Assembly (NCBI GenBank): GCA_030390025.1
Contig: CM059432.1
Location: forward strand, 48,052,001-48,116,000
DNA from: Squalus acanthias
Taxonomy: Eukaryota
Length of the DNA: 64,000 bases
Direction of reading: 5' to 3'
Shown here: positions 3,226 to 31,125 of the stretch, in pieces
Numbering within the stretch: the first letter of the stretch is position 1
Layout: every line of letters begins with the position of its first letter
The notes under the pieces: model-generated
The model's input: the letters and a program-made list of their open reading frames with translations, nothing else
Told to the model about the DNA's origin: nothing
Database searches by the model: none
Made by a program: the position numbers and the translations under genes

Positions 3226-3679
3226 TGGAGACATAGAAAAGAGGTTTTCACATTCCAAGCACATTGGGACAAGTTCTGAAGTGGGGGAGAAGCTGATCAG
3301 ATAGAACAGGCTTCATCTAAACTAAATTGGCACCAGTGTCCTTGCAGTAAAGATAAACAAACAGAGCAGTGAGGGAGGATTTAAACTGATAAGGCAGCAG
3401 GGGAAGTGAAAACAAAACAAACCAAAAAGAAAAAAATAATGGCATCAGTCGCAAAAAGATCAGATAAGAAAAGGAATGTTCTGAAAGATAGACTTAAACT
3501 ATTAAAATAACATTCATAAGGAGGCGAATGATAGAAGTAAGATTTAAAGAACAGAAGAGAGAAGAAGATGGAAGTATGTTTGTTGTGGGATGTTTATAAA
3601 GAAAAAAAGATTTAATAGATGAGATTGTCGTGGCAATTAGAAACTATGTAATAAGAGTCTCAGAAACAAGCTTAACCCC

Positions 3680-8765: not shown

Positions 8766-10084
8766 CTCCTAAGGGAAGAAGTGTCCAATGATTCTCTGGG
8801 ATTGATTACCTTTGCCAACAGTACATTTGGGGGCCTTTACTCGGCCCTGAATGGTCTTCACACCATTGCACCTTTCCATTCTCCAGCATTTTAGTGCTAG
8901 ACTCTTCATCTTGAAAGGAAGCAAATGCAAGGGTAGCTTTTATTTTTTATTGAATTGAGAAGGTTAATTTCAACCAAAGCTGTAGTACATAGGTACATAG
9001 TTGTAAAAGGCAAGTTCAGGACAAATGTCAGTAAGTACTTATTTTTAGACATAGTGATTCATACCTGGAAAATATTCCCTGGTAGAGTAGTAAAGGAAAA
9101 AACTCTGCAATTACTCATGAGGCACTTTGATGCTGGGCTGGGCTGGGCTGGGTGGGGTGGGGTGGGGAGGACCATAGGCTTCTATTGAAGGATGAACTAG
9201 ATGGGCTGAATGGCCTCCCTCATCTGTACTTATCTTTGTGAGCCACACTACTTTGATAAACCATTTAATTAGTGCCAGACACTTCCCACAGAGAAAGAGA
9301 AAGCAGAAAGATTCATCTTGCATCTTTCCAGCAGCCAGCTAAAGAATGGCCAAGGAGACAGGAAAGGAGAAAGTAAATAAATGAATATTCTGATATATCT
9401 GCCGTAATGGTGTGTTTCTAATGGTTGTTACACGAGGTTGGCAGGAAAAACTACACTAATGTGTGGAATAATCAACTATTAAACTATTATTTAAAAAAAC
9501 GTTGATCATGGAATACAGCATTCGAAATCTGTACAAAAAACACCTGCAGAAAGCATCAAGTGGGATTTTCCTTTCCTATTATTCGTAACAAAAGCAGAGG
9601 AATTTATAATTCTGAGCAATATGTGGTAGAATGGGAGACATTTATGGAATCTCAGTGCAAATTTATTGCATGGCAACTGGAAATCATTGAAGAATACACA
9701 GAGAAGATATTAAGAATCATTTCAAGTGTAAGGATGTTGAGCTATGAGATTTTAAAAACTCAATCTCTAGGCTAGCGAGAATACGTTGAAGGAGAGATCT
9801 CACTGAAGTATATAAAATATTAAATGGCTTAGATAAGGTAAATCCAGAATAATACTTTAAACTAAGATAGGCTATCAGGACCAGAGATCATAAGCATTAA
9901 CTAGTCAAAACCAGACATTTTTCACAGACAGGGTGCTAAGGGAGTATTCTGCCAGGCAGGCTGGTAGAGACAAATCAGAGCATTTAAAACATAGATGGAT
10001 GCTAGGCTAGGAGAGCGAAGGTATGAGAGGAATGAGCTTTGGTGAGTCAAATAGCCATTCTTATCTTTGACTTCTCTTATTAAA

Positions 10085-10335: not shown

Positions 10336-11103
10336 ATTCATAAATAACAATGCATTACACTCCTATTTGAGGATGCTATGCCATGTTATCAAGGAAGTGT
10401 TTTAAAATGGTTTTCGAATAGAGTGAGCCATAAAAATGAGTTATTGGATGAGCTATATCAAAGAACTAAATAGAACTATTGTATTACTAGGTTGCAAATA
10501 CATCAAATGTTTTATTAATATTCTACAGAATTGCTGCTGCATCCACTAATAGGCTAATAATAAAATCAAATTACTGTTATATCAGAAATAAAAATAGAAA
10601 ATGTTGGACATTTGTTGGTCAGAATCTGAAAGAATAAAAATAGGCTAATGATTTGAATAGGACCTTACTTCAAAACTGCACCTATTACATTGCAGATTTT
10701 CTAAATAATAGGGAGAATTTTGCTCTTGAGTCATGATGGTTTTCCGGCATAACTTAGGCAAGCAGGGGCAGAATATTGGGCAAGGTCCTCCTGACCCATG
10801 CGGTTTCTGCCCATTTCTGCCTGTAGTGATCTTCTACCTAAAATTGAGCAGGTGTAACCACATAAGGCAGTAATAGCAGCAGTATGTCAAACATTACATT
10901 TTCCATTATTGTGCAATGAGAAAGGGTTAATTAATAACCTTGTAGTAAAGGGGCCTTTAGGGAAGAGTGACCATAATATGATAGAATTTTATATTGAGTT
11001 TGAAAGTGATTTAGTTAAATCTGAAACTAGGGTCTTAAATCTAAACAAAGCAAATGACGTAGGTATGAGGGGTGAGTTGGCTAAGGTAGATTGGGAAACT
11101 ACA

Positions 11104-12039
11104 GCTCGGACCTGTGTCATGCTCCTCCTGTAACATGTGGGAAATCAGGGACGCTTCCTGTGTCCCTGACAACCATGTGTGCGGGAAGTGTGTCCAGCTG
11201 CAGCTCATGTGGGACCGCATGACGGCCCTTGAGCTGCGGATGGACTCACTTTGGAGCATCCACGATTCTGAGAGGGTTGTGGATAGCACATTTAGTGAGT
11301 TGGTCACACCGCAGGTTAAGGCCAGCGTAGATAGTACATGGGTGACCAAAAGGCAGAGCAAGGGCAGGAAGGTAGTGCAGAAATCCCCTGGGGTTGTCTC
11401 CCTTAGCAACAGGTTCACCGCCTTAGGTGCTGTTGTCGGGGGGGATGACTCATCGGGGGAAGGCACCAGCAGCCAGGCTCATGGCACCATGACTGGCTCT
11501 GTTGCAAAGAAGGGAGGGAAAAAGAGTGGCAGGGCTATAGTAATAGGGGATTTGATTGTAAGGGGAATAGATAGGGGTTTCTGTGGTCGCGACCGAGACT
11601 CCAGGATGGTATGTTGCCTCCCTGGTGCAAAGGTCAAGGATGTCTCGGCGCGGGTGCAGAACATTCTGGAGGGGGAGGGGGAACAGCCAGTTGTCGTGAT
11701 ACATGTTGGTACCAACGACGTAGCTAAAAAAGGGAAGAGGTCCTACAAGTAGAATTTAGGGAGTTAGGAGCCAAGCTAAAAAGTAGGACCTCGAAGGTAG
11801 TAATCTCTGGATTACTACCAGTGCCACGTGCTAGTAAGAGTACAGAGAACAGGATAGTTAGGCTAAATACGTGGCTTGAGCAGTGGTGTAAGAGGGAGGG
11901 TTTTAAATTTTTGAGGCATTGGAACCAGTTTTGTGGTAGGTGTGACCTATACAAAAGGGACGGTCTACACCTGTGCAAAGATGGAACTGATGTTCTCGGG
12001 GTAATTTTTGATAAAGCAGTTCGGGAGCATTTAAACTAG
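11104..12039 (+). pseudogene. CR1 ORF1p: CxxC..CxxC zinc finger, coiled coil, SGNH esterase-like domain; frameshift near 11730
   Basis: CSSC...CGKC, IGDLIVRG, VIHVGTND, DGLHL (ORFs 11114-11752 and 11821-12039). Confidence 0.9.
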
Positions 12040-14969
12040 TATGGCAGGGGGCTAGAAACCTATGTAGTGAAATAGAGGAAAGTGAAAGGCAGACAGAAAT
12101 AAATGGTAAAAGGGTGAGGAACAAAAAACAAAGGGCCAAACTAATTCATAAAAAATGTGAGCATAAAAAAAGCCTGAGGGTTTTATACCTTAATGCGAGA
12201 AGCATCAGGAACAAGGTAGATGAATTAGCTGTGGAAATAGAGGTTAATAATTATGATCTAATTGGGATTACGGAAACATGGTTGCAGGGTGAGCAGGGCT
12301 GGGAGCTTAACATACAGGGGTATTCAGTATTTAGGAAGGATCGACAAAAAAGAAAGGGAGGAGGGGTAGCATTGCTGGTAAAAGAGGGGATAAATGCAAT
12401 TGAAAGGAAGGATATTAACTCAGTTAATACAGAATCTATATGGGTGGAGCTAAGAAATAGCGAGGGGCGAAAAACATTAATAGGAGTGGTATATAGGCCT
12501 CCAAATAGTAAAATAGAGGTTGGGGAGGGCATCACAAGGGAAATTAGAGAAGCGTGCAATAAGAGCACAGCTGTCATCATAGGTGACTTTAACTTACATA
12601 TAGATTGGGCTAGCCTAATCAGTAAAAATAATGAGGAGGAGGAATTCCTTGAGTGTTTAAGGGATGGTTATCTGGATCAATATGTCGAGGAACCAACTCG
12701 GGAACAGGCTATATTGGACTGGGTACTGTGCAATGAGAAGGGACTAATTAGTAATCTTGTTGTACGGGGACCCTTGGGTCAGAGCGATCATAACATGATC
12801 GATTTCTCACTCGAAATGGAGAGCGAAGAAATTGACTCAGACTAAGGTCCTGAATTTAAACAAGGGGAATTATGATGCCATTAGACGGGAACTGAGTAGG
12901 TCTGATTGGACAACGTTCCTGGGAGGACTGGAGGTAGATAAACAATGGCAAGCATTTAAAGATAGAATGACAAAATTGCAAAAATTGTTTATACCAATCT
13001 GGCATAAAAGGAAATCTAAAAAGGTGACTCAACCGTGGATAACAGGGGAAATTAGAGACAGCATAAAATCCAAAGATAGGGCGTATAAAATAGCCAAAAA
13101 AAGCGCCAGAGCGGAAGATTGGGAACAGTTTAAGATAGAGCAAAGGAGGACAAAGGGCTTAATCAAGAGGGGCAAAATAGCTTACGAAAGCAAGCTGGCG
13201 GAAAATATAAAAACTAACTCCAAAAGTATATCAAGAGGAAAAGACTGGTGAAAACCAAAGTTGGTCCATTGCAGTCAGATACGGGGGAATATATAACGGG
13301 AAATAAGGAAATGGCAGACCAACTAAATGCATACTTTGGGTCAGTCTTTACGAAGGAAGACACAAAAAACCTCCCTGGGATATCGGGAAAAATAGGGACA
13401 TTGGCAAAAGAGGAACTGACGCAAATCAATATCTCTAAGGATATGGTGTTAAGGAAGCTAAAGGGATTGAAGGCGGACAAATCCCCAGGGCCTGATAACA
13501 TGCATCCTAGGGTACTGAAGGAGGTGGCCCTAGAGATAGCGGATGCACTAAGTATGATTTTTCAGAATTCATTAGACTCGGGAACAGTGCCCATGGATTG
13601 GAGGGTAGCTAACGTTACCCCACTATTCAAAAAGGGGGGTAGGGAAAAAGCAGGTAATTACAGACCTGTAAGCCTTACATCAGTTGTGGGCAAAATGCTG
13701 GAGTCCATCATTAAGGATGAAATAGCGGAGCACTTAGCAAATGGGGACAGGATAGGACAGAGTCAACATGGATTTACAAAGGGTAAATCGTGCTTGACTA
13801 ATCTATTGGAATTTTTTGAGGGAGTAACTGGTAAAATAGATGGGGGAGAGCCAGTAGATGTGGTGTACCTGGACTTCCAAAAGGCCTTCGATAAGGTCCC
13901 ACATAAAAGATTAGCGTGGAAAATTGAAGCTCATGGGATAAAGGGGAAAGTATTGACGTGGATAGAGAACTGGCTGTCAGATAGAAAACAGAGAGTTGGA
14001 ATAAACGGCTCATTTTCTGAATGGCAGGCAGTAACAAGTGGGGTACCACAGGGATCTGTCCTGGGTCCCCAGCTGTTCACAATTTACATTAATGACCTGG
14101 ATCAGGGAGTCGGATGCAGCATTTCCAAATTTGCAGACGACACTAAACTAGGAGTGGGGGTGGGCTCAGAGGAAGAGACCAGGAAGCTCCAGAGCGATTT
14201 GGACAGACTGGGTGATTGGGCGGATAAATGGCAGATGCACTATAATGTGGACAAGTGCGAAGTTATCCACCTTGGGTGCAGGAACGGGAGGGCAAATTAT
14301 TATTTAAATGGCAATAAATTGGGAGAGGGGGAAGTACAGAGAGACCTGGGTGTTCCTGTACACCAGTCACTGAAGGCGAGCATGCAGGTGCAACAGGCGG
14401 TCAAGAAGGCAAACGGTATGCTGGCCTTCATAGCAAAAGGGTTGGAATACAGGAACAGGGATACCTTGCTGCAGCTGTACAGGGCACTGGTGAGACCACA
14501 CCTCGAGTACTGTGTACAGTTTTGGTCGCCTCATCTGAGGAAAGATGTTCTTGCCATGGAGGGGGTGCAGCGGCGATTCACCAGGCTGATACCAGGAATG
14601 GCGGGATTGACCTATGAGGAGAGACTATGTAGTTTAGGGATGTACACACTGGAGTTTAGAAGATTGAGAGGGGACCTCATAGAAGTGTATAAAATTCTGA
14701 CAGGTCTAGACAGACTAGATGCAGAAGGAATGTTTCCCTTGGCGGGTGAGAACAGAACTAGAGGACATAATTTAAGGATAAGGGCTAAACCATTTAGGAC
14801 AGAAATGAGGGGGAATTTCTTCACTCAGAGGGTGGTGAACCTGTGGAACTCATTGCCACAGAGGGCAGTGTACGCCAGCTCATTAAATATATTTAAGAGG
14901 GAATTAGATATATTTCTACAGGCAAAAGGGGTTAAGGGTTACGGAGAGAAGGCGGGGACGGGATACTGA
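12030..14969 (+). pseudogene. CR1 ORF2p: APE endonuclease + reverse transcriptase; frameshifts near 12840 and 13225
   Basis: [51 protein letters not shown] (ORFs 12114-12845, 12832-13251, 13248-14969). Confidence 0.95.
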
Positions 14970-17454
14970 ATTGGAGGATCAGCCATGATCTCATTAAATG
15001 GCGGAGCAGGCTCGAAGGGCCGGATGGCCTACTCCTGCTCCTATCTTCTATGTATCTATGTATCTATTAAAAGGTATGATGGTAGACAAGCAATGGCTAG
15101 CATTTAAAGAATTAATACATAATTTACAACAAATATACATTCCTTTAAGGCACAAAACCCCACAGTGGATGTGGTGAATTTGGATTTTCAGAAGGCATTC
15201 AATAAGGTGCCACACATGAGGTTATTAAACAAAATTAGGGCTCATGGGATTTGGGGTAATATACTAGCATGGATTGAGGATTGCTTAACGGACAGAAAAC
15301 AGAGAGTAGGAATAAACGGGTGATTTTCGGGTTGGCAGGCTGTAATTAGTGGAGTACCACAACGATCAGTGCTTGGGCCTCAGCTATTCACAATCTACAT
15401 CAATGATTTGGGTGAGGGGACCTAATGTAATATATCCAAGTTTGCTGATGATACAAAGCTGGGTGGGAATGTAAGTTGAGGAGGATGCAAGGAGGCTTCA
15501 AGGGGATTTAGACAGGCTAAGTGAGTGGGCAAGAACATGGCAAATGGAATATAATGTGGAGAAATGTGAAGTTATCCACTTTGGTAGGAAAAATAAAAAA
15601 GCAGAGTATTTTTTAAAATGGTGAGAGATTGGGAAATGTTGGTGTTCAGAGGGACCTGGGTGCCCTTGTACACGAATCACTGAAAGTTAACATTGCAGTT
15701 ACAGCAAGCAATAAGGAAAGCAAATGGTATGTTGGCCTTTATTACAAGAGGATGAGAGTATAAGAATAAAGACGTCTTACTGCAATTATATAGGGCCCTG
15801 GTGAAACCACACCTGGAGTATTGTGTATAGTTTTGGTCTCCTTACCTAAGGAAGGATATACTTGCCATAGAGGAAGTGCAACAAAGGTTCACCAGGCTGG
15901 TTCCTGGGATGGGGGGATTGTCCTATGAGGACAGATTGAGTAGACTAGGCCTATATTCTCTAGAATTTAGAAGAATGAGAGGTGATCTCATTGAAACATA
16001 CAAAATTCTTACAGGGCTTGACAGGGTAGATGCAGGGAGTCTAGAACCAGGGGTCACAGTCTCAGAATTAGGGGTCGGCCATTTAGGACTGAGATGAGTA
16101 GAAATTTCTTCACTCAGAGGGTGGTGAATCTTTGGAAATCTTTACCCCAGAGGGCTGTGGAGGCTCAGTTGTTGAGTCTATTCAAGACAGAGATCGATAG
16201 ATTTTTGAATATTAAGGGAATCAAGGGTTTTGGGGCTAATGCAGGAAAGTGGAGATGATGTAGAAGATCAGCCATGATCTTATTGAATGGCGGAGCAGGC
16301 TCGAAGGGCCAAATGGCCTACTCCAGCTCCTATTTCTTATGTTTCTTATGTTCTTATGTAAAAGTGCCATAGCAACGCTGGACGTAATAAATGTCTATAT
16401 ATAGCAGTTATCCAGCAATTCTAGGGCGAGCAGAAAAACAATCACCCCAGGAAGTACAATCAATTTCAGAGAGATCAATTTGCACTTCACTACCTGTACT
16501 TCATGTGGAATTTTGCAGATGCTCAGTGTTTCTCCCAGCCTGGAGGCAGATGGCCCCTTTAAGCTGCTGCAAATGCCAAAGTACTGCAGCAACAGGAATT
16601 TTCCATCACAACCCTTGGGCGGTGAGCTCCCGAGCACAGGCAGAATACCTACTGGGCCCCACCCAAAATAAGTTAAGTTAAGCAGTGTTTCTGAATAGCA
16701 GGGAGGGTGGACCATCAGGGCTCAGACAATGCGGATTGGTTGCAAGCCACAATCGCCAGGGTACGGCGCATAGGGAAATTCAGTCGGGTCAGAGTCTATG
16801 TGTCGAGTGGGTGTAAGTCACGCTCCACCATACTGGTGGCAGATTAATTCGTAAAGGGAAAAATCTCAGCCAATATGTTTAATTAACTGAAGGCCATTAT
16901 TTGATTTGAAGTCTGAAAATTAACACTATTATTTCAGCGACTGAGTTATAACATTGAATGGCCACAGTAATTGATGATTGTTACCTTTGGAATTCACACC
17001 TTAGTCAGTTAAGAATTCTTTACCTGGCAGACAGCAAGTAATTTCCTTTCATAATTAGAACATATTAAATATAAGCTTGTCTCCTCTTGTTTGAGGTGAA
17101 TGAGGCAAAGCTAATTTTTTTATTTGGCAAAGACACAGGTTTGTTTCTTGTAATGTTTTCTTGTATTAAAGTCAATGTAAAGGAAAATTGGGCAGGATTG
17201 TCAATTTGATACTGCCAGTTTTACACCTCTGCCAAAATTGAAAATTATCCCCAGTATGTCACTCAAAAAGGACAAAACTACATTTGGATCTTAATTTCAT
17301 GCTATAATTAAATATATCTGGATCCCTTGGAGTTGTAACATTTTTTTTTTTAATGTTCACAGGGGAAGACATGAACAACATCCTCTCCTCAAAAATGAGT
17401 GCCAAGGCAAAATTCAGGAATTTGATATAAATGAGATGGACAAGCTTGAACGGT

Positions 17455-20569: not shown

Positions 20570-20890
20570 AAAGAAAGAACTTGGATTTATATAATAGCAA
20601 AATACTGCGGATGCTGGAAATCTGAAATAACAACAGAAAACGCTGGAAAAACTCAGCAGGCCAGGCAGCATCCGTGGAGAGAGAAAGAGAGTTAACGTTT
20701 CAGGTCGATGACCTGAAACGTTAACTCTCTTTCTCTCTCCACGGATGCTGCCTGGCCTGCTGAGTTTTTCCAGCGTTTTCTGTTGTTATTTTGGATTTAT
20801 ATAGTGCCTTTCATGACGTTAGGACATCCCAAAGCGCTTTACAGCCAATTAAGTACTTTTGAAGTGTAGTCACTGTTGTAATATAGGAAT
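20570..20890 (-). mobile_element. 3' part of a Deu-domain-type SINE, split by a Penelope-derived fold-back insert
   Basis: Reverse complement reads ACAACAGTGACTACACTTCAAAAGTAC..GGCTGTAAAGCGCTTTGGGA...TATATAAAT + (CTTT)n; resembles AmnSINE1/SacSINE1 tails from recall. Confidence 0.65.
20594..20790. mobile_element. Penelope pLTR-derived fold-back insertion
   Basis: 13-bp TSD TTGGATTTATATA (20581-20593 / 20791-20803); perfect 82-bp inverted repeat; homologous to the PLE end at 21461-21580. Confidence 0.85.
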
Positions 20891-24852: not shown

Positions 24853-27800
24853 ACTGTTACTAAAACATCAGAAATTGGGTCACTCCCCAGCACTGAGCAA
24901 CCAGGTTAAATAATGAAATAACTACCAATGTTGTTTTGGTGGCAGTCTTAAAGTGCAGAGCTGGTGTCAGATACAAACAATGAATATATGCATGGAACAA
25001 CATTTTGGTCCTGAATTTCCTGACTGTCTTCAGTACTTACACTGTTATTATGCTATTATTGCGCTAAAAAGATCAAGGAAACTCGTGTTTAGCACGTTAC
25101 ACTGCTTATGCACTGCTTATGGGGAGAGAGTGGGAATATGGTATTGAGATAGAGGATCAGCCATGATGATATTGAATGGCGGAGCAGGCTCGAAGGGCCG
25201 AATGGCCTACTCCCGTTTCTATTTTTCTATGTTTCCTCGATCTTTTTGGCACCACGAGGCACGTTTGCATTAGGAGCACTACTCACTGGGTGGCACTGTG
25301 CAAGGATATTTCCTGATATTACACAACTGCATTCTGGGAAAGTTAAATGCAAATAAAATGGGGGTGGGAGGGTTGGGGGGGGGGGGTGGGTGGGGGGTGA
25401 AATAGAAATGTGTTAGTGATAAGGGACTCTATAATTAGGGGGATAGATAGCGTCCTCTGCAGCCAAGAAAGAGAATCCCGAAAGGAGTGTTACCTATCCG
25501 GAGCCAGGGTAAGGGTTATCTCACGGCAGCTGGAGAGGGATGGGGTAAATCCAGTTGTTGTGGTCCATGTTGGAACAAACGACATAGGTAGGAGCAGGGA
25601 GGAGGTCCTGCTGAAAGTGAATCAGGAGTTAGGCTCTAAATTAAAAAGCAGGACCTTGAGGGTAATAATCTCTGGATTATCGCCCGAGCCACGTGCAAAT
25701 TGGCATAGAGTCAGACAGATCAGGAGAATTAACACGTGGCTAAAGGGCTGGTGTGGGAAAGAAGGGTTCCTTTTCATGGGACACTGGCACCAGTTGGGAT
25801 GGAATCCACCTGAACGGGACCCGTGTCCTAGCGGAAATGGTAAATAGGGAGGTGGCAAAGGCTTTAAACTAGTAAGATGGGGGGAGGGATCTACAAGAAA
25901 CAAAACCAGCCTAAATATAAACAAAACAGGAAAAGAGAGCATCGGAAAGAATAAAATAAGGGAGGACATTGATGGCAAGGGAGTAAATAGAGTTATAGAA
26001 CAGGAGTCTAAAAAGATGGTTAAACATAAAGTGAGAGGAAATCCTATTAAAAATGAGTTAAACTGTCTGTACAGCAATGCACAGAGTGTCCGTAATAAAA
26101 CAGGGGAGCTGAAGGCAATCATGCATTGTGAGGAACCAGACATATAGGGATTACTGAGACATGGCTACAGAAAAATCAGGACTGGAATTAAACATTGCAG
26201 GGTATAACATGTTTAGAAAAGATAGAGAGGGAAAAAGGGGAGGTGGAATAGCTGTACTTATTAGGGATAACATAAGTAGAAAAAAGTGATGCAGCTATCA
26301 GCAAGTCAAAAATAGAATCCATATGGATAGAGATAAAAGATAATAAAGGATCAATCACACTAATAGGTGTAGTCTACAGACCACCTAATAGTGGAAGGGA
26401 TGTGGGGGAAGAAATATGCAGACAAATTAGGGAAATTAATAAAAAAAATAGAATAATCATCATGGGGGATTTCAACTACCCCAATATTAATTGGACGGAA
26501 GAGGTAGGTAAAGGGGATAAGGGAATAGAGTCCCTACAATGTGTACAGGATTCCTTTCTATCCCAATATGTAAAAAGCCCAACAAGGGAGGATTCGCTAT
26601 TAGATCTAGTTAGGGGGAATGAACCAGAGCAGATAAGAGAAGTAAAAGTAGTGAAACATCTAGGCAATAGTGACCATAATATAATACGCTTTAAGTTGAT
26701 AATTGAGAAGACTTAAGTATGACAAAACCAAGGTAATAGATTGGAGAAAAGCTGATTTTGAGGGGCTGAGAATAGAACTTGGGAAAAAAATGGCAACAAT
26801 ATTGGCAAACAACGATGTAGAATAGCAATGGGAAACATTTAAAACGGTGTTCAACAGAGTGCAGCAAAATATTCTGCTAAAAGGAAAGAACAAACTAAAA
26901 AATAATGAGACTCCATGGATGAATAAAGCCATAAGGGAACAATTGAGGGTAAGGAAAGAGGCATACATTAAGGACATAGACAGCAAGGGAGTGCATGATA
27001 AGGGAGAATACAAAGAGATTAGGAGAGAAGACAAAAAAAATCAGAAGACAAAGAGGAACTATGAAATTAAATTATCAAGGAGCGTAAAACAAAATAGTAA
27101 AATATTTCACAGGCACATTAATAAAAAAAGGAAGGTTAGGATGGGAATAGGGCCATTAAGGGATAGACAGGATAATAACACAGGTAACAATAGAGAGATG
27201 GCAGAAATATTAAGTAATTATTTTGCTTCAGTATTTACCAGGGAGAAAGAACAGGTGGACATGACATTGGATGATGAGATTAGTATTGAGATAAGTGCAT
27301 TTAAAATGAGAGGATATATTAAATAAACTAATCAAACTCAGAGGATAAAACCCCTCATCCAGATGGATTGTATCCACGCATTTTAAAAGAATCTAGGGAA
27401 AAGATAGTAGAGGCATTACTACACATTTAATTATTTGTTAGAAAAAGGTGTAGTGCCAGAAGACTGGCGGATAGCTAACGTAATACCTATATTTAAGAAG
27501 GGGGATAGAACATGTTCAGGGAATTATAGACCAGTCAGCTTAACATCAGTGGTAGGAAAAATAATGGAAACTCTACTAAAGGAGAAAATAGAAGAACATC
27601 TAGAAACCAAAAATATAGTAATGAATAGTCAACATGGATTTCAAAAGGGAAAGTCTTGCTTGACCAACCTCATTGAATTTTTTGAAGAGGTAACAGAAAG
27701 TAGACAATGGTAATGCAGTAGATGTAATTTATCTAGATTTTCAAAAGGCCTTCGATAAGGTACCCTATAATAGACTAATGAACAAGGTCAAAGAATGCGG

Positions 27801-28395
27801 AGTCAGGTGATAAGTAGCAGAATGGATAGCTAGCTGGCTTCAAGACAGAAAGCAGAGAGTAGGAGTAAAGGGTAGCTATTCACAGTGGCAGAAGGTGGGT
27901 AGTGGTGTTCCACAAGGATCAGTGCTGGGACCACTGCTGTTCACAATTTATATTAACAATTTAGACTTTGGAATCAAAAACACAATTTCTAAATTTGCGG
28001 ATGACACAAAATTGCGGGGGGGGGGTGGAATATAGTCAATACTGAGGAGGACTGCAACAAATTACAGGAGGACATTAATAAACTTGCAGAATGGGCATAT
28101 AATTGGCAAATGAAGTTCAACACAGATAAATGTGAGGTATTACATTTTGGTAGGAAGAATAGGGAGGTCACTTATTACTTGGAGGGTGCGAGTCTAGGTG
28201 GGGTAGAGGAACAAAGGGATCTCGGAGTACAAATACACAAATCATAAAAAGTTGCGACACAGGTTAGCAAGGCCATAAAAAAAGTAAACCAAGCACTAGG
28301 GTTTATTTCTAGAGGTATAGAATTGAAAAGTAGGGAAGTTATGCTAAACCTGTATCGAACCTTGGTTAGACCACACTTAAAGTATTGCGTACAGT

Positions 28396-31125
28396 TGAAG
28401 GGATAATTACTAGTCCTAGCCCCTTTAGGGCTACCCCGGATCAGGCGTATTCCTCAGACGTTCACTTTCAACTAAAGTTTGATGTAGCCTGTAGAATTCG
28501 CAAAATTATCGCGATTTTATAATAATAAGGAGACATAAAGTTTCATATAAACAGCTTTATTTCAGCAAAATGCTGTCATGTTTCAAAAAGGACACAAGCA
28601 GCCTGTAAAATGGCCACCACGCCTCGTGGCAGAAGGTTCTAGACTTTCAGTAGGCAGACAAGATGGCGTTTCAATAAACATTTCAGCAAGATCGGACAGG
28701 ACTCAGCACATTTGAGATAATGACAAGACGCGATGGGTTTGCATTTTAAACATAAATACTGGAATCGGGTTTTCCATGCACAAACGAGGGCTATTGTACT
28801 GGGCGATCAAGGACCCATCCAAAGACATTGATATGTAAAATCCCCACGGCTCTACGATGAGAGAGCCGTTCGCGGGTACTCACAGCAAGCATTTGGGAGC
28901 CCCCAAAAACCCCTCCAGGGAGACTACTAGCCGGTTCCACAATGGGAGAAATATTAACGGGTACTCAGACAGTTACAAGTGTCACCGAAACCCATTAACG
29001 ACAAGTACCACCCCATACAAGAAGTTTGAGCGCCAAAACATGACAAAAGATGAACATTTAGATTGGGCGGGAGATAAGGAATTACAGTACTATAACTGTA
29101 GTGTCCAAACGTCCATCTTTCTCTTTTTCTTTACCACCGACTGGAGCTCTGGACTCTCATTCTCTGATCCGCTGATTTTCCGGGAGTCAACCTCGTGGCT
29201 TGCCGTGGAGATCTGTGGAGAGCTGGACTGCAAAGGCCGATAAGCGGGCGCACCATCCCGAGAAGTCGGTAAACGGTGTCGGATCCGAAGGCCCGGGAGG
29301 AGATGAGATGAGATGAGATGAGAAGAGAAGAAGAAGACTACACGTGTCGCCGTGGTCAGTAAGCCCCGACCGCGCCTCAAAATATAAGGACCATTTTCGA
29401 ATTCTACAGGAACTGGCCCGAGAAGACTATTCTTCGAGTTCTACCGACAACTGGTGTCGGGCACAGTAAGACTCTTCTTCGAACTGTATCTGGAGTCAAC
29501 ACAGATCTTCATGACAGCAGACGATCCAGCCTGCTAGCCGGAGCAGAAGCGAGTAAACAAGTGGGGTACAGAGACCCCTGATCAACACGTGAATAGTCAG
29601 GTGCTGTGGCGAAAACATCCGAGCAGCGTTTTAGAATTCTCCGAATTGTCCCGATTGGTGAGCATGAGTCTTGATCCTACAGATCTATTTTAGGACAGGC
29701 ATTGATAGGGGAGGTTTTGGTTTTAAGGATAATTATAATGTGTGTCCCCTTTTACGATGTGTCGTGCGCTCCTCGTTTCCCTAAAATTAGTTTCATAACT
29801 GTGTGCAAGATTGTACTGTCATTAATCTGTGCTTATGACATGTATTTCGTAATCTTGAATAATATGCAATAAAGATTTTCCATTTCGCACTATTCAACCG
29901 GGTCTACCTGAGTTTTCTCTGCATTATTGCTCTCGCACCTAAGTCCAGTGTCAGAACCGTAAGGGCGAGTGGGTCGAACCACTCACAGGTGTCTAGTGTT
30001 ACCAGGCTGGCTGGAGACCAGAACAGGCAACAAGGCCTAACCCCGCACTAGCACCCAGGCTAAGCACAGAGCCACGCGAAACCCCCTTACAAGCCGAATC
30101 CTAAAGATGCTTAATTGGGTCTAAAGGTCCAGACTATCTCTCCCTAAAGGAAAGGAACAACCTGAAAATGTTACCATCCTCCAGATAGCACTTTTAATAA
30201 GTTTAGCTAGACTGTAACGTTCCAGATATTATGAGGGTCTGGAAAACTCCCCCAGAATTCTGCAACTCCTCACCAAAGAGTGTACAGAAATTGAGTTCGC
30301 GAGTTTGATACAGAAGTCTTGAGACAATTCTAAAAATATATAGATTTATTAAAGAACCAACATGTAGTTTACAGTTGGTGAGTCAATCACAACATTAACA
30401 GTTCCAAAAAGAGAAAGCTTACAATTCTATTATCAGAGATCCTTACTCTCAAATCTAAACTTCGTTACAGTTTTACAGTTCTTAGTTTTCTACTCAGGAT
30501 ATCCACCAAAATCAAATACCTTTGATCGCCGAGGTACAAAGAGTTGGAGACTTACAGAGCTGCCTCTGAAGCCGAGAATCACGTTGCCCCTTTAAAGCGA
30601 GGCTACTATCCCATTTGAGAGTTCAATATTTATACCCTTTTCCAGTGGTATTTCCTTTAAGGTTTTCTGCTGATGTAAGCTAATTATCTCTAGTAATTTT
30701 TCTGCTGACCCCTGCAATTCTTAGTCACCTCAGCTGGTAGCATTACAGAATTATGTCTCTTCTCTAAGTGTTCTAAGTTTACCATAAAAAACGGTGTAAC
30801 GGCAGGTGCGTTTTACTTGATGTCATTTTTACGAAGGCAAATGTTTGTGCTTCTTTACGAAGTGTAAATTAGAACACCTTGTACAGGGTGAACCATTGTT
30901 TGATTCTGAAAGATTCAGACTACCGGAGCCTTTAACCTTCTGTTTCAATAAGGTTATTGATTCAGTGTCAACAACTATCTTATCTCTATAGCCAGAATAC
31001 TTTCACAGCTTTTTCATAGTTAGGTTTCTAGATTTCCAGACCCAGTTTGTCATGTTTTAATAAGGCCAGAATTCTTTCATAGAATGGTGTATTTTTCTGA
31101 ATAGGTTATATGGCTTATTCCTTCA
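28396..31125 (-). mobile_element. Outer solo-LTR-like insertion (28396-28489 + 30096-31125)
   Basis: TGAAGG...CCTTCA termini interrupt the CR1 coding sequence; degenerate flanks TACAGT/CACATT; minus-strand AATAAA (about 30345) and TATAAA (about 30630). Confidence 0.65.
28490..30091 (+). mobile_element. Solo LTR, about 1.6 kb, nested in the outer LTR
   Basis: TGTAGA...TTACA; perfect 4-bp TSD AGCC (28486-28489 / 30092-30095); AATAAA at 29868; CpG-rich. Confidence 0.8.

Follow-up and report, generated by a model that had tools for sequence, protein, structure and literature searches.

In esterase-type CR1 LINEs, ORF1 ends on the slippery heptamer T_TTA_AAC, which lies in phase with the ORF1 codons and is followed at once by the stop codon. 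The -1 frame is closed just upstream of the heptamer and open beyond it, and this arrangement is conserved across jawed vertebrates, to an extent that is far beyond chance as judged from the sequences compared. We interpret the conserved heptamer and stop as a programmed -1 ribosomal frameshift signal, with a probability of roughly 80%, by which an esterase-endonuclease-reverse transcriptase fusion would be made. A gag-pol-like fusion of this kind had been proposed in a first-pass annotation of the window, the 64,000-nucleotide stretch of Squalus acanthias contig CM059432.1 (GCA_030390025.1, positions 48,052,001 to 48,116,000) analyzed here. Both refutation tests that were run left the predicted fusion standing.

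CR1 copies in the window

The copy that carries the junction described in the first-pass annotation (copy 1; Table 1) has an SGNH/GDSL esterase in ORF1, an APE endonuclease and a reverse transcriptase in ORF2, and a short tandem tail, with neither poly(A) nor LTR. By these sequence features it is an esterase-type CR1 LINE, the CR1 assignment following from similarity to library rows labelled CR1. The esterase gave a GDSL match below the cut-off (E 3e-4) and a profile match to PDB 4c1b (E 4e-37). The endonuclease has its best named homologues in skate, sawshark and stingray. One further homologue, P0014, is a CR1 endonuclease fragment from a 741-nt contig that is recorded as the bacterium Aeromonas cavernicola; the contig is probably fish DNA that ended up in a bacterial assembly.

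Copy 1 is a relic, 5'-truncated and broken near 11730, 12840 and 13230, so that the question of ORF2 translation concerns its family rather than copy 1 itself. The base missing at the ORF1 break is present in other copies. The truncation, these three breaks and the two further junctions in the window had escaped the first-pass annotation, which described the junction of copy 1 only. An older CR1 (10888-11101 and 15062-16351) was cut in two by copy 1, since a single homologue aligns on either side, with residues 243-306 at 10906-11097 and residues 308-358 at 15064-15207. Elsewhere in the window, a strong inverted repeat of ~120 nt (20646-20770) matches a number of microRNA models on either strand, with no match reaching the gathering score; it is probably a small palindromic element.

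Table 1. CR1 features in the window (positions are those of the window)
Feature	Position	Strand	Evidence
CR1 LINE copy 1, 5'-truncated about three codons into ORF1, within an older CR1	11102..15061 (ends approximate)	+	
ORF1: Cys-rich N-terminus, coiled-coil-like segment, SGNH esterase; one-base break near 11725-11740	11102..12039	+	
APE endonuclease of ORF2, -1 frame; frame break near 12835-12845	12186..12842	+	
Rest of ORF2: inter-domain region (break near 13218-13250) and reverse transcriptase	12799..14969	+	RVT_1, E 1e-31
3' UTR and short tandem-repeat tail	14970..15061	+	Direct reading
Slippery heptamer T_TTA_AAC, last ORF1 codons	12030..12036	+	Direct reading
ORF1 stop TAG, directly 3' of the heptamer; candidate stimulator	12037..12039	+	
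Out-of-frame ATG, 4-codon frame; first AUG for any reinitiating ribosome	12041..12055	+	
G-run, starting 11 nt 3' of the heptamer; candidate stimulator	12047..12051	+	
Linker, A-rich and basic, 49 codons, no ATG, open in the -1 frame only	12039..12185	+	
Heptamer and TAG in a second, diverged CR1 (copy 2, about 25410-28400); 66-codon linker, open in the -1 frame only	25863..25872	+	
Heptamer and TGA at the end of a third, decayed ORF1 relic (copy 3)	3380..3389	+	

The junction between ORF1 and ORF2

Read directly, ORF1 of copy 1 ends CAT TTA AAC TAG. The earlier claim of a correctly phased T TTA AAC right before the stop was borne out when both elements were re-read, and the X_XXY_YYZ pattern of a -1 frameshift signal is thus present in the 0-frame phase. 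In the -1 frame, a stop at 12012 lies five codons 5' of the heptamer, with no ATG in between; the frame is then open for 271 codons, up to 12843. Its first ATG (12795) stands at the end of the endonuclease, which agrees with the earlier statement that ORF2 has no in-frame ATG before that point. The same annotation had the -1 frame running 28 codons into an ORF2 at 12114. The open frame was confirmed, but 12114 is no boundary, just the first in-frame GTG; together with one CTG (12174) it makes up the in-frame near-cognate codons 5' of the endonuclease. All nine ATGs between the ORF1 stop and 12400 fall in the other two frames, which stay open for 1-19 codons from them. The 49-codon linker is free of stops in the -1 frame, against 5 and 8 stops in the remaining frames, and the -1 frame stays open in 77 of 5000 dinucleotide shuffles. 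The absence of ATG over 49 such codons is not improbable in itself; its relevance is that the copy 1 family has none usable. In the copy 1 family, the -1 frame thus leads from the heptamer into ORF2 without a stop and without a start of its own; other families have linker AUGs.

The 10-mer formed by the heptamer and TAG occurs twice in the window against 0.26 expected (1 of 100 shuffles reaches two), and both occurrences are CR1 ORF1 ends. The second belongs to copy 2, whose esterase is about 70% identical to that of copy 1 (blastn) and which by eye is close to the spiny dogfish consensus SquAca_CR1-22 of the PMC13343379 library. Copies 1 and 2 share the same 12 nt at the junction, the second-longest exact block over 1350 nt, whereas the flanks differ (3/10 identical just upstream and 7/20 at +20 to +39). 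Copy 2 likewise has a -1 frame stop five codons before the heptamer, and its linker, open in that frame, stays so in 14 of 5000 shuffles; an in-frame ATG at 26016 lies 18 codons 5' of the endonuclease. For copy 3, the 149 nt upstream of the heptamer score 69.5 against copy 1, above all 2492 control windows, and 42.5 against copy 2, a score reached by 4 of the 2492 controls. All seven letters of the heptamer are identical in the three copies. A heptamer followed by TAA at 9856 was rejected as a junction, as it sits in a decayed reverse transcriptase C-terminus. There (9856-9865) the heptamer reads Phe-Lys-Leu in frame, and the same 9-mer occurs in bird CR1 ORF2 3' ends. In the Suh 2014 supplement apart from its file 1, the 9-mer matched only at ORF2 3' ends.

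Four sequencing runs, one of which may be the window's own source, were aligned to 11680-12330 at 80% likeness and a 4% share. One 2076-nt contig equals 11813-12330 with no differences and no gaps, and in a second run two contigs equal 11827-12051 and 12022-12330 with no differences. In a third run, whose depth across the junction sums to ~250,000, the rows listed contain no indel in 11982-12122; as a positive control, the missing base of ORF1 at 11725 registered in 29,040 of a depth of 105,849. Among the 40 of 97 rows listed, substitutions reach 26% at 12006 and 31% at 12011, with none in 12012-12050. One-base deletions in linker A-runs (8% at 12123, 9% at 12150 and 5.5% at 12165) would together be frame-neutral if linked. 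The contigs that match 11813-12330 without difference come from runs labelled as different organisms, which suggests that the family is young and common to close species. No relative turned up in metagenome and viral scans, and the single match of the genome scan, bacterial and 18 residues long, was set aside.

Conservation in CR1 consensus sequences and ORF1 proteins

Conservation was assessed in the vertebrate CR1 library of PMC13343379 (Supplementary Table 2, ~1000 consensus sequences). The first 400 letters of each were searched, so only 5'-short rows show the junction, which was judged by eye from esterase codons upstream or endonuclease downstream. The heptamer with TA gave 23 matches, 17 of them at the junction, and the heptamer with TG gave 7, two at the junction. 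Hence 19 of the 30 matches are CR1 ORF1 ends, from 12 species: two sharks, two rays, a chimaera, two ray-finned fish, a coelacanth, a frog, a lizard and two crocodilians, with no bird or turtle rows. The letter after the heptamer and TA, which lies outside the search term, completes a stop in 17/17. Overall, 18 of the 19 junctions have a stop (TAG in 11, TAA in 6, TGA in 1, none in 1), so that the identity of the stop varies among junctions and the heptamer is constant. In TAATG junctions, an AUG overlaps the stop in the -1 frame; this arrangement occurs in 3 of the 19 and in none of the three window copies. Read by eye, 15 of the 19 have a run of at least four G that begins at +4 to +14 relative to the heptamer (8-11 nt in 11), and all three window copies have one as well. 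One of the library rows, AldAff_Crack-2, is labelled Crack, carries an esterase ORF1 end and the CR1 junction motif, and may be mislabelled.

As a control, two other heptamers followed by TA or TG gave 20 library matches, none at a junction. Six synonymous variants of the heptamer, a set that keeps its first T, gave 73 matches; none of the 24 places inspected was a junction. Four of the 46 library parts were also taken in full, which yielded nine unselected junction rows: eight have the full heptamer, one starts inside it, and none differs. The heptamer therefore does not vary freely at synonymous sites, one of three findings that, according to the first-pass annotation, would speak against frameshifting. 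Nor is there another of these, a conserved AUG before the endonuclease: it is absent in the copy 1 family, overlaps the stop in the TAATG junctions, and is scattered elsewhere. Given the codon use of copy 1, an unconstrained x-Leu-Asn end would be spelled T_TTA_AAC with p ~0.016, although library rows are related and such p values cannot simply be multiplied.

The ends of ORF1 proteins extend the comparison. Of 17 close homologues, 16 have x-Leu-Asn as their last residues. The exception, P0046, is annotated as an in-frame fusion, which has no stop and runs from Phe-Lys-Leu through a ~100-residue open linker into the endonuclease. From the best 150 representatives at 50% identity, 98 were kept, namely those that extend to the last helix and stop no more than 20 residues past it, and 52 were left out. 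Asn is the last residue in 63 of the 98 (48 Leu-Asn, 9 Gln-Gly-Asn, 2 Ser-Lys-Asn, 4 other), and 35 end in another residue. In 58/98 the end is compatible with one of the four heptamers listed as most shift-prone in PMC5009743, against 280 of 29,410 windows elsewhere (0.95%), in a sample whose ORF1 profile was built from Leu-Asn enders and hence favours them. A conserved motif 20 residues inside scores 16/98 in the same test. Leu-Asn keeps its terminal position, while its gap to the last helix differs by up to 14 residues. Residues without a T-ending codon precede Leu-Asn directly in 1/48, compared to 13/48 and 17/48 one and two places further up and 4/48 at the next two.

Among crustacean-type ORF1 esterases (P0098-P0220), the ends Gln-Gly-Asn, Ser-Lys-Asn and Lys/Gln-Gly-Phe-x occur, which are compatible with slippery heptamers other than T_TTA_AAC; in three proteins the end is Cys-Arg-Gly, compatible with none. 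A Gln-Gly-Asn protein used as query gave 22 matches: 7 with Gln-Gly-Asn (two named snow crab), 5 with Lys/Gln-Gly-Phe-Phe/Leu-x, 1 with Leu-Asn and 9 others. The Lys/Gln-Gly-Phe-Phe/Leu-x ends fit G_GGU_UUU or U_UUU_UUA. These protein ends are compatible with a heptamer swap in crustacean elements. In addition, the close homologue P0001 has a SART1-like TAATG overlap at the junction, and many related families have a linker Met, at scattered places, in a protein set where gene callers favour such proteins.

Mechanism, rival explanations and known systems

Under the frameshift reading, a minority of ribosomes would slip by -1 on U_UUA_AAC, with tRNA-Leu and tRNA-Asn re-pairing from UUA AAC to UUU AAA, and would continue at CUA into the linker, endonuclease and reverse transcriptase, while the rest stop. 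The product would be an ORF1-endonuclease-reverse transcriptase fusion beside abundant ORF1 protein, in which the variable basic linker may act as a tether between esterase and endonuclease. Such a fusion would set a low ORF2p:ORF1p ratio and load the enzyme onto its own particle, resembling Gag-Pol, though no protease domain was seen. The pause might come from the adjacent stop, from the G-run at the mRNA entry channel, or from both, rather than from a local pseudoknot.

A 3' stimulatory stem or pseudoknot, usual though not universal at such sites, was not found, and the linker holds only 10% C. In a pseudoknot-free model, the local fold 3' of the copy 1 site has z values of -0.5 to +0.3 (six windows overall, -0.5 to +1.2). 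No quadruplex is predicted at the junction, Rfam gave no match near the junction of copy 1 or copy 2, and long-range partners for the G-run were no better than in shuffles (9 and 3 of 20). A C-rich ORF1 stretch in some library rows is complementary to the G-run by eye and was discarded as a partner, as it does not fit copy 1. The first-pass annotation had seen no convincing pseudoknot and only a G-rich run; within the limits of a pseudoknot-free model this agrees with our folds, to which the comparison adds that the G-run is conserved in position. Its position is where stimulators usually start. Gly codons in the run are often GGG, a hint of a function at the RNA level. Our guess is that the adjacent stop or the G-run is the stimulator. 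According to PMC5009743, a stop near the -1 site, of any kind, can be required in pea enation mosaic umbravirus, where it lies one codon further on than in CR1 and behind another heptamer; the same review describes stimulation by G-quadruplexes in synthetic constructs and knows of no natural example.

A serious rival, although we consider it unlikely, is termination-reinitiation as in SART1 or L1, by which ribosomes would restart beside the ORF1 stop, at an overlapping AUG or a non-AUG codon, and the conserved letters would be a restart signal. Reinitiation has been reported for SART1 (UAAUG, PMC5972666) and proposed for L1 (PMC2881922). A restart at the stop would likewise keep the linker open, and the TAATG junctions of the library and of P0001 place an AUG in the -1 frame, so in these families reinitiation may run in parallel. 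L1 tolerates the loss of its AUG. However, the copy 1 family has no in-frame AUG before the end of the endonuclease, and its nearest ATG opens only the short out-of-frame reading in Table 1. The AUG comes and goes between families that are 63% identical in protein, whereas the heptamer stays. Reinitiation also leaves unexplained why a canonical X_XXY_YYZ stands in exact phase and why crustacean protein ends fit other slippery heptamers, and neither the overlapping UAAUG nor the downstream structure needed by SART1 was found at the window junctions.

Much less probable still is that the letters are kept for the Leu-Asn end of the ORF1 protein or for an RNA or DNA signal (a splice acceptor or protein site), with ORF2 made from linker AUGs or another transcript. 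Leu-Asn is indeed strongly conserved in the protein, and Met is common in linkers. A protein need, however, fixes neither TTA nor AAC nor the preceding T (the p value above applies per independent lineage), and it does not account for the near absence of residues without a T-ending codon before Leu-Asn; the copy 1 family, moreover, has no linker AUG. As to a splice acceptor, TAA and TGA junctions lack AG, and no joint was seen in the RNA-type run, a weak argument. That the -1 relation and missing AUG arose by mutation after insertion is scarcely credible: copy 1 does have three other frame breaks, but its junction is identical in other assemblies, shows no indel at a 4% share among the rows listed, and has the same phase in copy 2 and in the annotated fusion P0046. 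Initiation upstream in the -1 frame was rejected because copies 1 and 2 both have a stop in that frame five codons 5' of the heptamer, and transcriptional slippage because the heptamer has runs of only three letters, which are too short for it.

The frameshift reading has close parallels. Viral -1 frameshifting at U_UUA_AAC, the coronavirus IBV site (heptamer list in PMC5009743), has the same heptamer in the same phase, with a structural protein upstream and the polymerase in the -1 frame; the CR1 site differs in the lack of a detected pseudoknot or stem, the stop directly behind, the conserved G-run and the absence of a visible protease domain. Frameshifting by -1 in a LINE has a precedent in the APE-type non-LTR elements TRE5-A and TRE3-A of Dictyostelium, for which a figure legend in the review PMC5911963 states that a -1 frameshift is required for ORF2; the likeness is drawn from that legend, and these elements belong to another clade and have another ORF1 type. 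SART1 and L1 resemble CR1 in having a bicistronic RNA whose ORF2 depends on ORF1 translation, but they restart at an AUG (UAAUG stop-start in SART1, a 63-nt spacer in L1; PMC5972666, PMC2881922) and give free ORF2p, whereas most CR1 families have no AUG at the stop. Further precedents are Paramecium LINEs, for which a +1 shift or reinitiation has been suggested, and HeT-A, with a frameshift within gag. The vertebrate esterase-type CR1 elements of PMC13343379 have the same esterase ORF1, APE and reverse transcriptase ORF2 and short tandem tail as copy 1; the main text of that paper does not contain the terms frameshift, overlap, translation, reinitiation, start codon or slippery, and ORF2 production is not addressed in it. 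No description of a CR1 frameshift site was found in the openly accessible literature; the original accounts of CR1 in chicken and turtle, older papers behind subscription and Repbase reports may already mention one. On this evidence, the CR1 junction is best read as a programmed -1 frameshift, a mechanism that is itself known from other systems. More tentatively, and with less than even confidence, it could represent a class of -1 frameshift present in host genomes in very many copies and driven by a new kind of stimulator.

The abstract of PMC13343379 describes CR1 as the retrotransposon that dominates in most vertebrate species, and PMC3894237 calls LINE ORF2 translation an open question, for which reinitiation is the working model and is assumed for most LINEs. 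If the frameshift reading is true, the CR1 reverse transcriptase would carry the esterase ORF1 protein at its N-terminus, which would change both the annotation of CR1 ORF2 and its cloning for transposition assays. The CR1 junctions would then also offer hundreds of natural sequences for finding a non-pseudoknot frameshift stimulator.
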